Both the position numbers and the translations under genes were made by a program. From NCBI RefSeq assembly GCF_055900595.2, contig NZ_CM148325.1: 64,000 nt of DNA; one strand, 5' to 3'. The stretch's first letter is position 1. Every line of letters begins with the position of its first letter. The notes under the pieces were generated by a model. The model was given only the letters and a program-made list of their open reading frames with translations, was not told the DNA's origin and searched no databases. Shown in pieces: positions 38,963 to 44,634 of this stretch.

Positions 38963-39217
38963 ATGAAAATTATCAGTTTTGTTCTGCCTTGCTTGCTGGT
39001 CCTGGCTGGTTGTTCAACCCCTTCTCAGCCAGAAGCACCTAAACCGCCGCAGATTGGTATGGCAAATCCGGCGTCGGTCTATTGCCAGCAGAAGGGCGGG
39101 ACGCTCATTCCTGTGCAGACAGCGCAAGGGGTCAGCAACAATTGCAAATTACCGGGCGGTGAAACGATTGATGAATGGGCATTGTGGCGACGGGACCATC
39201 CGGCTGGTGAAAAATAA
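38963..39217 (+). CDS. yoaF: DUF333 lipoprotein YoaF
   Basis: 84-aa ORF with lipoprotein signal MKIISFVLPCLLVLAGCS. Confidence 0.85.
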   Translation: MKIISFVLPCLLVLAGCSTPSQPEAPKPPQIGMANPASVYCQQKGGTLIPVQTAQGVSNNCKLPGGETIDEWALWRRDHPAGEK

Positions 39218-39238: not shown

Positions 39239-39586
39239 TCACAAGCTACGTAGCCAGTCTGCCAGCACCAGCGCATGGTTCTGTGTGGTGTTTTTTGCTG
39301 AGTAGAGCAGGGTCAGCGGCTGTTTTTTGGCGATGTCTGCCAGCCGCTTTCCTTCTTGCTCGTGTTGCGCCAGTTCTGCAAGATATTGCTCGCGAAAGGT
39401 TGCAAAATCGACGACTTCGCCGTGAAAGGCTTTGCGCAGCTCCGTTGACGGCGTGATTTCTTTATCCCACTCATCAAGGGCTAAATCGGTTTTTTTGATA
39501 CCGCGTGGCCAGAGGCGGTCGACCAGTACGCGATAACCATCGCTCTGTTCAGCCGGATCATAAACGCGTTTGCACTGAATATTCAT
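39239..39586 (-). CDS. yeaO: DUF488 protein YeaO
   Basis: Track ORF 39239..39607 trimmed to ATG at 39586 (MNIQCKRVYDPAEQSDGYRVLVDRLWPRG...). Confidence 0.8.
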   Translation of the reverse strand: MNIQCKRVYDPAEQSDGYRVLVDRLWPRGIKKTDLALDEWDKEITPSTELRKAFHGEVVDFATFREQYLAELAQHEQEGKRLADIAKKQPLTLLYSAKNTTQNHALVLADWLRSL

Positions 39587-39640: not shown

Positions 39641-40822
39641 TTAGCGAATTTCTTTGTCTCTCCCGGCGCAAAGTCCGAAAATCGCCATCAGTAGTGAAAG
39701 TATTGCAACACCCATCAGTGGTACGGACCAGTCACCGTTAGCATCGTGTATTTTACCCATCAGCGGCGGCCCACAGGCTGCCAGCAAATACCCGACGGAT
39801 TGTGCCATCCCCGAGAGTGCTGCCGCCTGATGCGCAGAACTTGCCCGAAGACCAATGAACGTCAACCCCAGTATCATTGTTGCGCCGGAACCAAAACCGA
39901 AAAGCAGAGTCCAGGTGATCGCGTGTGCTGGCATAAAGCAGAGCCCAACCGCGCCCACTGCGCACATCAAGGCAACGAACGCTGCAATACCACGCTGATC
40001 TTTCACATGATGTAAGAAAAGTGGGATCAGCAAACCGGGAGCTGCTGTGGCTAGTTGCAGCAAACCATGCAGTGAACCCGCCTGTGCTTCGCTATAGCCG
40101 TGACTGATGAGGATCGCCGGAAGCCAGCCAATAATCACGTAATAGACGAGTGAGTTGATCCCAAGAAACAATGTTACCTGCCAGGCAAGCGGCGAACGCC
40201 AGATACCCCGAGTATGTAAGGCGCGTGAGGTACTCAAATTTGCATGTTGTTGACTTCGCCACTGTGGCAGCCATAAAAAAAGAGCCAGCAGAGGAAAACA
40301 CATCAGCATGAGCAACGCGCCTTGCCAGCCAAAACCGTTCAAAGCCAGCGGCACGACCATAGCCGATCCCAGTGCCGCCGCAGCTCCCATTGTCAGGGAA
40401 TATGCGCCGGTAAGTCTGGCGACGGAATGAGGGAAATCGCGTTTAATTAATCCTGGCAGTAAGACATTGCCTAATGCAATCCCACCGCCAATGACCGCTG
40501 TACCGCCAAATAATAAGTAAGGCGAAGGGAGAGAGCGAATTGCGATACCTGCACAGATCAAAAGTAACGCGGCAAACAGGCTACGTTCCATACCAAAACG
40601 TCGCGCCACCGGGGCGGCAAGAGGTGAGATTAGCGCAAAGGCCAATAATGGCAGGGTGGTTAATAAGCCGGTTTGCGCCGTCGTTAGCGAGTAAGCGGAA
40701 CGAATCGTATCCAGTAACGGTGCTGCGCCGGTAAAGGTGACGCGTAATGTTGTGGCAATCATCAGAATGCCAGCGATAAGGACAATCCTGTTTTTGCCGC
40801 TTAATGAAGTTGAACAGGCCAT
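39641..40822 (-). CDS. nimT: MFS transporter NimT (YeaN)
   Basis: 393-aa multi-TM ORF MACSTSLSGKNRIVLIAGILMIATTLRVTFTGAAPLL... Confidence 0.88.
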   Translation of the reverse strand: MACSTSLSGKNRIVLIAGILMIATTLRVTFTGAAPLLDTIRSAYSLTTAQTGLLTTLPLLAFALISPLAAPVARRFGMERSLFAALLLICAGIAIRSLPSPYLLFGGTAVIGGGIALGNVLLPGLIKRDFPHSVARLTGAYSLTMGAAAALGSAMVVPLALNGFGWQGALLMLMCFPLLALFLWLPQWRSQQHANLSTSRALHTRGIWRSPLAWQVTLFLGINSLVYYVIIGWLPAILISHGYSEAQAGSLHGLLQLATAAPGLLIPLFLHHVKDQRGIAAFVALMCAVGAVGLCFMPAHAITWTLLFGFGSGATMILGLTFIGLRASSAHQAAALSGMAQSVGYLLAACGPPLMGKIHDANGDWSVPLMGVAILSLLMAIFGLCAGRDKEIR

Positions 40823-40918
40823 ATGTTTCTCATTGATACAAACGAGGCTGTACCTTACCGTTTTTATTGTTATGTTGAATCAAGTTAAAATGACAAATTA
40901 TCGCTAAATTCGGACAAA

Positions 40919-41740
40919 ATGATGCACAGGTTGAATCTCAATGGTTATGAACCCGACCGACACCATGAAGCCGCGGTCGCATTTTGTATTCACGCCGGAA
41001 CGGATGAGTTAACCAGTCCTGTACATCAGCACCGCAAAGGGCAGCTGATACTGGCGCTACATGGTGCAATTACCTGTACGGTGGAAAATGCTTTGTGGAT
41101 GGTGCCGCCACAATATGCGGTTTGGATACCGGGCGGGGTGAAACATAGCAATCAAGTGACAGCTAACGCTGAACTCTGTTTTCTGTTTATAGAGCCCAGC
41201 GCAGTGACAATGCCGACAACATGTTGCACATTGAAAATATCGCCCTTATGCCGGGAATTAATTTTAACCCTGGCAAACAGGACGACGACTCAGCGTGCTG
41301 AGCCGATGACCCGCAGATTAATTCAGGTCCTGTTTGATGAACTCCCTCAGCAGCCACAACAACAGCTGCACCTGCCCGTTTCTTCTCATCCTAAAATCCG
41401 CACGATGGTGGAGATGATGGCGAAAGAGCCTGTCGAGTGGGGGGCATTGGGGCAATGGGCTCGCTTTTTTGCGATGAGTGAACGCAATCTTGCCCGACTG
41501 ATAGTGAAAGAGACGGGGTTGAGTTTTCGCCAGTGGCGTCAGCAGTTACAGCTGATTATGGCGCTTCAGGGATTAGTGAAAGGCGATACTGTACAGAAAG
41601 TTGCTCATACGCTGGGGTATGATTCAACAACGGCCTTTATTACTATGTTTAAGAAAGGCCTGGGGCAAACGCCAGGCCGATATATTGCGGGATTAACTAC
41701 TGTTTCCCCACAATCAGCGAAACCAGACCCGCGGCAATAA
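40919..41740 (+). CDS. nimR: AraC-family regulator NimR (YeaM)
   Basis: 273-aa ORF, cupin-like N-terminus and AraC HTH C-terminus; divergent from nimT. Confidence 0.88.
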
Positions 41741-42143
41741 GCGGGCCAACCGGTACGCCGCGAAACAGCGCCACGCCCAAAACAGTGCCCACCAGCAGCC
41801 CGGCGACCAGTTGCGGCTGGCTGCCCATTAACGTCACGCCGCGCCCACCTAGCCAGGAGACAATAACGCCTACTGCAATTGCCACCAGCGATTTCCAGTT
41901 CAGAAACGAGTGAATCAGGGTTGAGGGCGGTAGCGTCCCGCTGGCGATGGGGGCCATAACGCCAATCGTCAGAATGATTATCCCGATACTTAGCCCCTGT
42001 TTTTCAATCCACGGGAAAAAGGTGCTTAACGGTGTGACGCGGACAATGATTAACACCAGAATTGAAACGGCGACAGTGGTGTTATGACTGATAAAGCCCA
42101 GCGCAGCTAACCCGAGCAGGATCAGCAAAGTGACATCAAACAT
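41697..42143 (-). CDS. yeaL: DUF441 membrane protein YeaL
   Basis: 148-aa [39 protein letters not shown]... Confidence 0.85.
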
Positions 42144-42312
42144 CGTGGTTTCCTTGCCAAAAAATAATAAGCCTGCTTACTTTACGCTTGCTGCAGGAAG
42201 GAAGTAGAAAATCTTTACGTTTTTTGCATAAAAAATCAGGCGAACTGTCATCAAACTGCCATTTGTGCACGCTAACAATAACGTGAAAACAGCTATCTCC
42301 CCGGGGCATACT

Positions 42313-42417
42313 ATGAACGATCAAATGTTTGTCGAGACACTGATTATCACGTCATCGTTTTTTGCCATTGCTGTTGTGCTGGTTTTGTCCGTTCTGCTTA
42401 TTGAACGGACAGGCTAG
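42313..42417 (+). CDS. yoaI: small membrane protein YoaI (34 aa)
   Basis: Translated by hand: [34 protein letters not shown]; absent from track (under 60 aa). Confidence 0.75.
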
Positions 42418-42921
42418 TTACGCAGTGCGGCGGAAATTGACCAGTTCTGGTTGCGCAATGCGCAAATAATCCGCGGTTTTCAAAATAACGGATTTATCCA
42501 GCATGCCTGCATTGAAGGCGATTTCATCAAATCGTTCGAAGAGTAGGGGGTCGGCAACCAGTTTGAGTTTTGGATGGAAGCTGAAAGGGGGGATCGCGCC
42601 GAAGACACAGCCTGTGAGTTCATCGACTTCCGCCGGGCTGGCCAACGAAGCGCGTAATCCGCCTATATGGATGGCAAGTTGGCTCAGATCGGCCTGTTGA
42701 TCGGCAGCGAGGATCGCCAGAACATGTTGATTTACGCCATTGCCTTTGACTTTACATACCAGTGCCTTAGCCCCCTGGCCTAAAGCGGTGCCACGAATTT
42801 CTGACACCGCTTCGCATTTACCTACCGCCTCATGGGTAACGACGCGGAAGTCAGCACCTTCTTGTGATAATAAAGCGATTAACCGCTGATGCGTCACGCT
42901 TCCTTTAGCCATTTCAGTCAT
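42418..42921 (-). CDS. yeaK: YbaK/ProX-family aminoacyl-tRNA deacylase YeaK
   Basis: 167-aa ORF MTEMAKGSVTHQRLIALLSQEGADFRVVTHEAVGKCEAVSEIRG... Confidence 0.88.
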   Translation of the reverse strand: MTEMAKGSVTHQRLIALLSQEGADFRVVTHEAVGKCEAVSEIRGTALGQGAKALVCKVKGNGVNQHVLAILAADQQADLSQLAIHIGGLRASLASPAEVDELTGCVFGAIPPFSFHPKLKLVADPLLFERFDEIAFNAGMLDKSVILKTADYLRIAQPELVNFRRTA

Positions 42922-42963: not shown

Positions 42964-44454
42964 TCATGAACGGCTGTTTTTGTTCTGCTTATTGACATAT
43001 AAACGCTCATCGGAAGCTTTATACGCATCATGTAACGTATCGTTTTCTTTCATCGCATAAATACCGGAAGAGAAGCCGATCTCTTTCTGCGGCGCGATAT
43101 GTTGCAGACGTTTTTCGATACGTTCAGGCAGTTGTGCTGCAATTTGCGGCGTCGAATCGACAAGAATGATGCAGAATTCATCGCCACCGAGTCGGATGGC
43201 ATAATCACTTTTACGAATCGACTGTTTAATCGCCTGAGCTAATAACGTAATCGCTAAATCTCCTTCCTGATGACCGAGCGTGTCATTTATTTGCTTTAAC
43301 TTGTCCATGTCAATTGCAATAAACATCACCGAAGAACCAGATTGCACCAGTTTTTGCAACCGCTGCTCCAGTTCAGGGGTTAATATTTTGCGATTATACA
43401 GTCCGGTCATCGCATCACTAATATTTTCTCGCGACACATTTTGGTATAAACGGAAGTGCATCCGCACCATATTCAGCAAAATTAACGCCGTCAAAATCCA
43501 GAACAGAACGCTTTTCCACGAAGATGTGATAAAGTAAAGAATATCAATGGATAACGATACACGAATGCCGCCCGGTAAGTCATGGACGTAACTGACATAC
43601 TGGAACAGATTATCTTCGCTCTGGTTGATGATAATGTCGCGCCCAGAATCTGTATCGGTTAGCGTGACATTGAGAAAACGCCAGAGGAGAGGGCGGTCAT
43701 GCGTGTAAAAGATATTCCGCAGATTGTTTTTGTTAATATCCAGCAGCACAATTCCTTTTAGCTGCCCTGCAACATACACTGGCGTCAGCAAACTCATCAC
43801 GTTCTGTTTAGTACGCTGATCCTGGTAAATGCTCGATAATACGGTGCGACCGGTAAAAACTTTTTCAATATCTTTGCGATCGATGCCAATGCTTCCTGAC
43901 TGCAGGAAGGACCAGTTATTCATCGCAAAGTACTCAACATTAACCGGCTCATAAAAATAGACATAGAGGTCATTGAGATCGAGATAATAGTGAAATTTCT
44001 CTTCGGCCATTCCAAGACCTGAACCATAATCATCCTGGTGGCGGTTGCCTTCCACTGCCTGATCAAAAGCGGGTAATAGTGCTGCAGCTTCCACAATTGT
44101 GTCGCATTCAGTGGATGCGGTTTGTAGTGTACCGTGTAAGCCCGTGTACTTATGGGCAGTCAGGTTTAAGCCATGGGTATTATTGGCAGACTCAAAAGCC
44201 TCGCAGATGGTACGCCGCTGTTCTGGCGACACTTCCGACTGCTCAGCAGCGAGAGCGCGCATCACATGCGCGGCAATACTCTGATTTTGATACTTGTCAT
44301 AAAGAAAGGAGGAATCTGCTCTCTGCACGATATAGCGCAGATAGGCACTCATTGCTCTGTCGCTGGCGACAAGTTCAAAAATAAGGAAGGAAGATGTCAG
44401 CACAATGACACTTGCGGCGATAAAATGCCGGAGCATTCTATGGTGCAATTTCAT
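42964..44454 (-). CDS. dgcJ: diguanylate cyclase DgcJ (YeaJ), membrane sensor plus GGDEF
   Basis: Track ORF 42964..44634 trimmed to ATG at 44454 (MKLHHRMLRHFIAASVIVLTSSF...); GGDEF motif RLGGDEF; 496 aa. Confidence 0.88.
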   Translation of the reverse strand: MKLHHRMLRHFIAASVIVLTSSFLIFELVASDRAMSAYLRYIVQRADSSFLYDKYQNQSIAAHVMRALAAEQSEVSPEQRRTICEAFESANNTHGLNLTAHKYTGLHGTLQTASTECDTIVEAAALLPAFDQAVEGNRHQDDYGSGLGMAEEKFHYYLDLNDLYVYFYEPVNVEYFAMNNWSFLQSGSIGIDRKDIEKVFTGRTVLSSIYQDQRTKQNVMSLLTPVYVAGQLKGIVLLDINKNNLRNIFYTHDRPLLWRFLNVTLTDTDSGRDIIINQSEDNLFQYVSYVHDLPGGIRVSLSIDILYFITSSWKSVLFWILTALILLNMVRMHFRLYQNVSRENISDAMTGLYNRKILTPELEQRLQKLVQSGSSVMFIAIDMDKLKQINDTLGHQEGDLAITLLAQAIKQSIRKSDYAIRLGGDEFCIILVDSTPQIAAQLPERIEKRLQHIAPQKEIGFSSGIYAMKENDTLHDAYKASDERLYVNKQNKNSRS

Positions 44455-44634
44455 GATAAATGGCACTCCTTCGGTTAGTGAAACGAGAAAACCAGATAAA
44501 GTTCGATTGCGGCCTGGCACAGGGGCGCTAATTATACTCATCTCTGCGCCGCTGGGGAGGGGAAATTTAGGGGTAATAGTAATAAATTGTATGCAAAAGC
44601 CACGCAAAAAGCATGGCTCTGAATATTTTTGCAC

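Follow-up and report, generated by a model that had tools for sequence, protein, structure and literature searches.

Convergent nimR and yeaL share 44 bp of coding sequence

The window, a stretch of 64,000 nucleotides (RefSeq assembly GCF_055900595.2, contig NZ_CM148325.1), contains two genes that run into each other from opposite sides. nimR, also named yeaM, occupies positions 40919–41740 of the plus strand, encodes 273 amino acids (aa) and ends with a TAA stop codon at 41738–41740, while yeaL occupies 41697–42143 of the minus strand, encodes 148 aa and ends with TAG, which reads CTA on the plus strand (41697–41699). The two coding sequences (CDSs) overlap tail to tail over 44 bp (41697–41740, both strands), and each stop codon falls within the CDS of the partner gene. 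From the sequence, the phase of the overlap is (123:132), with nimR codon positions 1, 2 and 3 facing yeaL positions 1, 3 and 2, respectively. The preliminary description had reported a 44-bp 3′ overlap in which some 15 codons of each gene lie on opposite strands of the same DNA; the overlap is borne out by the list of open reading frames (ORFs), the sequence and the RefSeq annotation, and the codon estimate is fair, as each gene contributes 14 sense codons and a stop.

RefSeq annotates the identical two CDSs with the identical 44-bp overlap in a strain that is 100% identical to the window. In K-12 MG1655, RefSeq places yeaL at 1874352–1874798 and nimR at 1874755–1875576, again with an overlap of 44 bp, and there are zero differences between K-12 and the window within it. 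The nimR–yeaL region was found in 5408 of 5426 complete Escherichia coli genomes. Because it is the stop codons that determine the 3′ ends, misannotation of a start codon is ruled out as the source of the overlap, and both genes are genuine protein-coding genes, as judged from their Pfam matches and hundreds of orthologs.

YeaL is a DUF441 inner-membrane protein that matches the Pfam profile DUF441 over aa 7–145 (2.7e-44), covering the full profile (1–139 of 139), and its identity across Enterobacteriaceae amounts to 84–98%. The part of YeaL encoded in the overlap (residues 135–148) belongs to this conserved domain, which reaches aa 145 of 148. The C-terminus of YeaL is constrained, as it lies inside DUF441 and its sequence is nearly invariant.

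NimR is an AraC/XylS-family regulator which, according to Pfam, combines an N-terminal cupin-like domain (AraC_binding/Cupin_2, aa 22–147) with a C-terminal double helix-turn-helix (HTH) domain (HTH_18, aa 180–255, 3.4e-19, ending at profile position 77 of 80; HTH_AraC, aa 224–256). It is annotated in K-12 as a transcriptional repressor, and the nimR product is described as an AraC-family repressor of nimT; the regulon of this single-target regulator consists of nimR and nimT (PMC5934670). An AlphaFold2 model built with 18 orthologs shows N-terminal beta strands and C-terminal helices, the last helix spanning residues 252–260, and pLDDT falls below 50 for residues 263–273. With the limit of the HTH domain at about aa 255–258, the part of NimR encoded in the overlap (residues 260–273) is predicted to be a tail past the DNA-binding domain. 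A low pLDDT does not in itself prove that the NimR tail is disordered or functionless.

The overlap is conserved among relatives, but its length is not

A per-species survey, in which one genome per species was scanned and each ORF was extended to its stop, returned 80 loci. Convergent adjacency of nimR and yeaL recurs in 69 of the 80 loci of related species, usually in exactly the same register, indicating that the arrangement is conserved. In about 45 of the 69 loci, nimR ends with a TAA that aligns with codon 265 of E. coli, the overlap is 17 bp long, and YeaL ends with …L(F/L/I)-I-G-K-(S/Q/A). In E. coli and 13 Citrobacter loci, YeaL ends with …L-I-V-G-K-Q, NimR has 273 aa, and the overlap is 44 bp long. 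The 44-bp form is thus carried by 5408 E. coli genomes and 13 Citrobacter loci, and the 17-bp form by about 45 species.

Lengths other than these two were found in a limited number of loci. The overlap amounts to 20 bp in C. amalonaticus, C. sedlakii and one Citrobacter metagenome-assembled genome (MAG), to 21 and 0 bp in two Salmonella subspecies, to 29 bp in a Klebsiella MAG, to 45 bp in Yokenella and to 0 bp in Enterobacter sp. BIGb0383; in C. werkmanii and Franconibacter the genes do not overlap and are separated by gaps of 4 and 8 bp. Even among close relatives the overlap switches between lengths of 17, 20, 21, 29, 44 and 45 bp.

In a protein search, most NimR orthologs had 262–264 aa and ended with …L(T/A)T(T/P)S(R/Q), including those of Salmonella, Klebsiella, Enterobacter, Kluyvera, Raoultella, Leclercia, Lelliottia, Pluralibacter and others. 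NimR has 273 aa in E. coli, where clusters P0002 and P0003 of this form comprise thousands of members, and 272–273 aa in C. freundii; an Escherichia variant with 90% identity (P0004) has 264 aa and ends with LTTVSR. In the 12 species in which yeaL is not adjacent, NimR has 262–264 aa in 11 and 272 aa in one, Entomohabitans. Three of these genera, Kosakonia, Phytobacter and Edwardsiella, have NimR ends of the type …RYLAxLGxx or …LAANTP, i.e. tails of unrelated sequence. Judged from the ortholog sequences, the natural length of NimR is about 262–264 aa. The preliminary description named orthologs in which one of the two proteins ends earlier as grounds for refutation, and NimR is such a case: it has 263–264 aa in about 45 species of at least 15 genera as well as in a divergent Escherichia lineage, and for this protein the earlier end is the normal one.

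Ile145Val in YeaL coincides with loss of the nimR stop codon

Alignment of the orthologs places the lost ancestral TAA stop at nimR codon 265, which is now CAA (Gln; 41711–41713, plus strand). The yeaL codon that meets it on the minus strand is codon 145 (41709–41711), GTG (Val) in the window and ATC or ATT (Ile) in most other genera. The two codons share a single nucleotide, position 41711, which is the first base of both. In the 60 in-register loci, this column contains T in 43 and C in 17, and among the overlapping in-register loci Ile145 always occurs with a stop at nimR codon 265 and Val145 always without, with zero exceptions. In the species with Ile145, the plus strand reads TAA because yeaL codon 144 is xTT; in the E69 lineage this codon is xTC and the stop is TGA. 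YeaL residue 144 in the species with short NimR is Phe, Leu or Ile.

The sequences themselves show the path from the short to the long form. The ancestral overlap is the 17 bp between the yeaL stop and the nimR stop position of most Enterobacteriaceae (41697–41713, both strands). An A-to-G change in yeaL codon 145, replacing Ile by Val, is a T-to-C change on the nimR strand and turns TAA into CAA. The nimR frame then stays open for nine more codons up to the next in-frame stop, located within the antisense of Leu135–Ile136, yielding a protein of 273 aa and an overlap of 44 bp. The extension comprises residues 265–273 (QSAKPDPRQ), i.e. Gln265 and the run-on residues 266–273 (SAKPDPRQ; 41714–41737, plus strand), which are antisense to yeaL codons 136–144. 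As a substitution in YeaL, Ile145Val is conservative and lies in a hydrophobic stretch close to the C-terminus.

The present nimR stop is the antisense of two conserved yeaL codons, Leu135 (CTT) and Ile136 (ATT). Columns 41738 and 41740 are invariant and column 41739 varies only synonymously with respect to yeaL Leu135; due to this variation, the stop at 41738–41740 is absent in some species. Over the 149 antisense yeaL codons, the nimR frame contains 9 stops with a mean spacing of 16 codons, so that the actual run-on of 9 codons can be explained without selection.

The finding that E. coli NimR exceeds most of its orthologs in length might raise the suspicion that the overlap is an artefact of annotation or sequencing, with one of the genes truly ending earlier in E. 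coli. Such errors are common among long convergent overlaps, 124 of 178 of which were artificial 3′ extensions due to frameshifts or stop-codon errors in the survey of Pallejà et al. (PMC2478687). However, the same sequence is present in thousands of independent complete genomes, the 3′ ends are set by stop codons irrespective of the choices of a gene caller, both frames are intact through the conserved domains, and the extension reflects a true genetic stop loss that E. coli has in common with Citrobacter. We assign next to no probability to an artefact, which is refuted at the DNA level; the convergent nimR–yeaL overlap is conserved across species and is no annotation error.

Evolutionary history of the overlap

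A neighbour-joining tree was calculated from nimR and yeaL, i.e. from the locus itself. It groups Escherichia, Salmonella and Citrobacter together, and the outgroup genera all have Ile145 and the 17-bp overlap, except for the Klebsiella MAG, Yokenella and the other exceptions listed above. On this tree, the most parsimonious history would have a single Ile145Val substitution, and with it the longer NimR, at the root of the clade of Escherichia, Salmonella and Citrobacter, and a minimum of five shortenings after it.

The shortenings took different forms. In the 'E. coli E69' lineage Val reverted to Ile with TGA as the stop, and in C. youngae ATCC 29220 the reversal produced TAA. In the C. sedlakii and C. 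amalonaticus group the reading of NimR ends at a new TAA at nimR codon 266, made by a change of the yeaL Leu143 codon from CTG to CTT that is synonymous in yeaL. In Salmonella there is a 1-bp change of register or an earlier stop, and in C. werkmanii TGA at nimR codon 258. In the opposite direction, Ile changed to Val independently in the Klebsiella MAG and in Yokenella, and the overlap was lengthened. Next to E. coli, the scan returned a single divergent Escherichia lineage ('E. coli E69', L002) and no locus of E. albertii or E. fergusonii, so that polarity inside the genus depends on that lineage.

Within E. coli itself, a search of the 5408 genomes for an allele with TAA at nimR codon 265 gave zero exact 45-mer matches, a search that would miss an allele with a second difference nearby. 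The 273-aa form of NimR appears to be fixed within E. coli.

Signs of constraint in both frames of the ancestral overlap and in one frame of the extension

We computed the entropy of alignment columns over the 60 in-register loci; neither the entropy values nor the Mann-Whitney comparisons take phylogeny into account. Where DNA codes for one protein, the third codon positions stand out as expected: in the nimR-only HTH region, the entropy is 1.20 at nimR third positions vs 0.28 at first and 0.17 at second positions, and in yeaL-only DNA it is 1.26 at yeaL third positions vs 0.13 at first and 0.00 at second positions. The DNA of the NimR extension (41714–41737) behaves like yeaL-only DNA, with an entropy of 1.35 at yeaL third positions (second positions of nimR) and of 0.00 at yeaL second positions (third positions of nimR). 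At yeaL synonymous sites, the entropy is 1.13 in codons 136–144 compared with 1.18 in codons 1–135 (p = 0.85). DNA under purifying selection in two frames should show fewer changes at the synonymous sites of each than the non-overlapping parts of the two genes do; in the extension this is not seen, and the second codon positions of NimR are the most variable ones. Because in this phase every synonymous site of yeaL is a second codon position of nimR, drift in yeaL rewrites the NimR tail. Where NimR has 273 aa, hardly any residue of the tail is the same between species, while YeaL 136–144 is identical in all of them. No constraint from NimR is detectable in the nine-residue extension.

The ancestral 17 bp show a different pattern. 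From codon 145 to the stop, the synonymous entropy of yeaL drops to 0.48 vs 1.18 in the rest of the gene (Mann-Whitney p = 0.0017, ignoring phylogeny). About 55 of 59 species retain the rare G-ending codons GGG, AAG, TCG and TAG, which stand consecutively at the yeaL end, and the third position of Gly146 has the lowest entropy among the 16 conserved Gly codons of YeaL. The nimR third positions within 41697–41713 are near-frozen as well. This is how constraint in two frames would look, but where the genes do not overlap NimR has tails of unrelated sequence; any constraint on NimR residues 260–264 would be compositional at most. Transitions at the frozen yeaL sites would introduce Ile, Met, Val or Phe at the end of NimR, which offers a possible, if speculative, reason for the freezing. 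The view that the overlap constrains both C-termini thus may hold for the ancestral 17 bp, where silent sites look frozen in both frames (p about 0.002, ignoring phylogeny), and holds for the end of YeaL, but not for the nine-residue extension of NimR.

One could nevertheless envisage that E. coli and the C. freundii complex benefit from the extension, for instance through the stability, oligomerisation or ligand response of NimR, and that selection keeps it. The 273-aa form prevails in essentially all E. coli, where the TAA version has no exact match, and in the 13 Citrobacter loci, and it is kept in most of the C. freundii complex, a distribution that weak selection rather than drift could explain; the tails are also loosely similar among species, being polar and Pro-rich. 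However, this composition follows from the conserved yeaL codons, to which the tail is antisense, and the tail varies at nearly every residue through changes that are exclusively synonymous in yeaL. The synonymous entropy of the underlying yeaL codons equals the background, and the extension was lost at least five times in the same clade by four routes, including the yeaL-synonymous CTG-to-CTT change. The predicted structure has pLDDT values below 50 in this part, and most orthologs work with 262–264 aa. An adaptive role of the extension is accordingly highly improbable.

The alternative, which we prefer, is a neutral or near-neutral extension that forms a probably disordered appendage on NimR. 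Most likely, nimR–yeaL is an ordinary conserved tail-to-tail overlap of two unrelated genes that was lengthened by the loss of a stop codon, and not a device coupling the two proteins.

Transcription across the overlap

A consensus scan identified a candidate intrinsic terminator of yeaL on the minus strand at 41647–41678, inside the sequence coding for the HTH domain of nimR. The hairpin starts 19 nt past the yeaL stop and has a stem GGCCUGG/CCAGGCC (41678–41657) of 7 bp, including 6 GC pairs, an 8-nt loop and a downstream UUUCUU. Its folding energy is −14.1 kcal/mol (z = −1.48), and 16 of 200 shuffled sequences fold equally well. The perfect 7-bp stem is confined to Escherichia and Citrobacter (17 of 60 loci), with 3–6 pairs elsewhere. 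Covariation across the 60 species is weak: 77% of the cells are paired vs 73% after shuffling, there is one compensatory pair, and two pairs are broken in half of the species. TERMITe Term-seq supplements contain no entries for yeaL, nimR, b1789 or b1790. The hairpin is a reasonable candidate for a yeaL terminator in E. coli.

The element resembles bidirectional or embedded intrinsic terminators in being a GC-rich hairpin followed by a U-tract and placed directly after the yeaL stop, where the two transcription units converge. It differs from them in its location inside the nimR CDS with no intergenic spacer, in being clade-specific, and in having the U-tract on the yeaL strand only (the plus strand after the stem reads GAUAUAUU), so that it looks unidirectional. 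An Rfam scan of 40700–42600 returned JUMPstart as its only hit, at 21.5 bits against a threshold of 35; this sub-threshold match was dismissed as chance.

On the plus strand past nimR, the consensus scan gave no intrinsic terminator, and the fold of 41735–41860 (z = +0.99) had no unusual structure. The RNA in this region, which is antisense to yeaL, is rich in C and poor in G and U (C/G = 1.5, 9–12% T). We infer that yeaL transcription would end at the hairpin and U-tract about 20 nt past the yeaL stop, inside the nimR CDS, while nimR transcripts would run into the C-rich, G-poor antisense yeaL RNA and, judged from base composition, would probably be ended by Rho. The two mRNAs would then be complementary over at least 44 nt, with a regulatory effect that is probably small.

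Overlapping transcripts from a convergent pair are also the hallmark of excludons, and nimR–yeaL might be a working example, in which the genes are expressed in a mutually exclusive manner owing to collision of RNA polymerases and/or cleavage of the RNA duplex by RNase III. If so, derepression of nimR would lower the expression of yeaL, and vice versa. The pair is indeed one of the 165 convergent excludons that ExcludonFinder detected in at least 50% of 58 MG1655 RNA-seq sets, placing it in the MG1655 'excludome' together with its neighbours yeaK-yoaI and yeaO-yoaF (PMC12288877). Consistent with such a function, the convergent arrangement and its geometry are conserved (69 of 80 loci), and nimR has no intrinsic terminator, making read-through into yeaL likely.

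Several observations argue against mutual exclusion. The listing denotes overlapping RNA-seq coverage and no more than that, as coverage inevitably overlaps when CDSs do, and the same report gives neither an anticorrelation of expression nor a dependence on RNase III for yeaL-nimR (PMC12288877). Read counts of yeaL were low in a PhoB study (one dataset; PMC10294691), and nimR is annotated as a repressor and belongs to its own regulon; with low yeaL reads in that dataset and an autoregulated repressor, promoter firing and hence collisions may be rare, and interference is expected to be weak. Among species, the overlap ranges from −8 to 45 bp with neither gene lost, and the candidate hairpin and U-tract probably stop yeaL transcripts about 40–50 nt into nimR. 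Classic excludons overlap by long UTRs and have mutually exclusive expression based on interference or RNase III, whereas nimR and yeaL overlap by their CDSs. We found no evidence of reciprocal regulation in the literature on the pair. A working excludon is therefore unlikely.

A more elaborate scheme would combine these elements: nitroimidazole-type derepression of nimR would silence yeaL by antisense read-through, the hairpin would shield nimR from the reverse effect, and the frozen yeaL codons would keep hydrophobic residues out of the NimR tail. We regard this combination as very unlikely. The ordinary overlap lengthened by stop-codon loss remains the preferred reading.

Relation to other convergent overlaps and practical consequences

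Convergent pairs make up about 7% of the overlaps between well-characterised genes, and they originate by loss or mutation of a stop codon or by 3′ extension (PMC2478687); conserved convergent overlaps were also the subject of Rogozin et al. 2002, as cited there. Longer overlaps are tolerated in the convergent orientation only, and with 44 bp nimR–yeaL falls below the limit of 60 bp that Pallejà, Harrington and Bork (2008) set for a 'long' overlap (PMC2478687). The phase (123:132) is the commonest one for convergent overlaps of at least 5 nt, accounting for 49% (Lillo and Krakauer 2007, PMC2174442). With two unrelated genes on opposite strands, shared 3′ ends, a stop codon altered by a point mutation, the (123:132) phase, a length of <60 bp and conservation in relatives, nimR–yeaL resembles the conserved convergent overlapping pairs and shows no essential difference from them.

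The overlap was already annotated and the pair already catalogued as an excludon; the overlap is genuine but commonplace. The present analysis contributes the exact substitution, yeaL Ile145Val being the nimR TAA-to-CAA change, the one-sidedness of the constraint, and the finding that the NimR tail has changed its length repeatedly. The locus may serve as a traceable textbook case, in which one conservative substitution in one gene removes the stop codon on the opposite strand and only one of the two frames is selected.

For experimental work, any edit, deletion or insertion in 41697–41740 hits both genes, and standard knock-outs of yeaL or nimR may change the C-terminus and the 3′ end of the partner. 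Natural variants illustrate the point: in O157:H7, the single-nucleotide polymorphism 41732 C>T simultaneously changes NimR (R272W) and YeaL (A138T), and in strain 23CRST051 an IS1 insertion in the overlap replaces the C-termini of both proteins.

Changes at the 3′ ends of nimR and yeaL

In E. coli 23CRST051 (locus L085), an IS1 element is located at 1560–2330, within the nimR/yeaL overlap, at a site equivalent to window position ~41731. After the insertion, NimR comprises 279 amino acids with the new end …KPDPGDDANLLI, and YeaL comprises 166 amino acids with its final 9 residues exchanged; a single IS1 insertion has rewritten the C-termini of both proteins. In O157:H7 G5295 (locus L083), a C>T polymorphism at window position 41732, which is codon position 1 for nimR and yeaL alike, results simultaneously in NimR R272W and YeaL A138T.

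At the end of yeaL, codons 146–148 and the stop form a run of four successive rare G-ending codons, GGG, AAG, TCG and TAG (41697–41708, minus strand), which is kept in ~55 of the 59 species. Despite this frozen run in yeaL, the NimR tail sequences of the non-overlap species are unrelated.

nimR is probably damaged in two further loci, with yeaL intact in both. In Silvania confinis (L021, 3001–3438), a premature TAG breaks nimR after 145 codons, and in Leclercia adecarboxylata (L066) the NimR match begins only from residue 33; these two nimR copies are probably pseudogenes or frameshifted. An E. coli NimR variant, P0001, has 292 amino acids and carries an internal tandem duplication of 19 residues in its cupin domain.

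Neighboring convergent pairs and the yoaI–yeaL spacer

Within 5 kb, the window holds three tight convergent pairs. In addition to nimR/yeaL, these are yoaI (42313–42417, plus strand) with yeaK (42418–42921, minus strand), which are separated by 0 intergenic bases, and yoaF (38963–39217, plus strand) with yeaO (39239–39586, minus strand), which are separated by 21 bp. All three are included in the published list of excludons (PMC12288877).

The spacer between the divergent genes yoaI and yeaL (42144–42312) has been reported to contain a PhoB binding site, placed at 1874218 in K-12; in that study, yoaI depended strongly on PhoB for its expression, and yeaL counts were low (PMC10294691). The promoter scan returned a sole sigma-70-like match, at 42335–42308 on the minus strand, inside yoaI.

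Further features of the region

The longest dgcJ open reading frame (42964–44634, minus strand) starts with GTG and encodes 556 amino acids, and the RefSeq gene (42964–44454) encodes 496; the upstream extension beyond the RefSeq start is probably untranslated. Inside yeaL, antisense to the gene, a sub-threshold match to the Rfam JUMPstart family at 41908–41937 (plus strand) scored 21.5 bits compared to a gathering score of 35, with E = 0.1, and most likely arose by chance.
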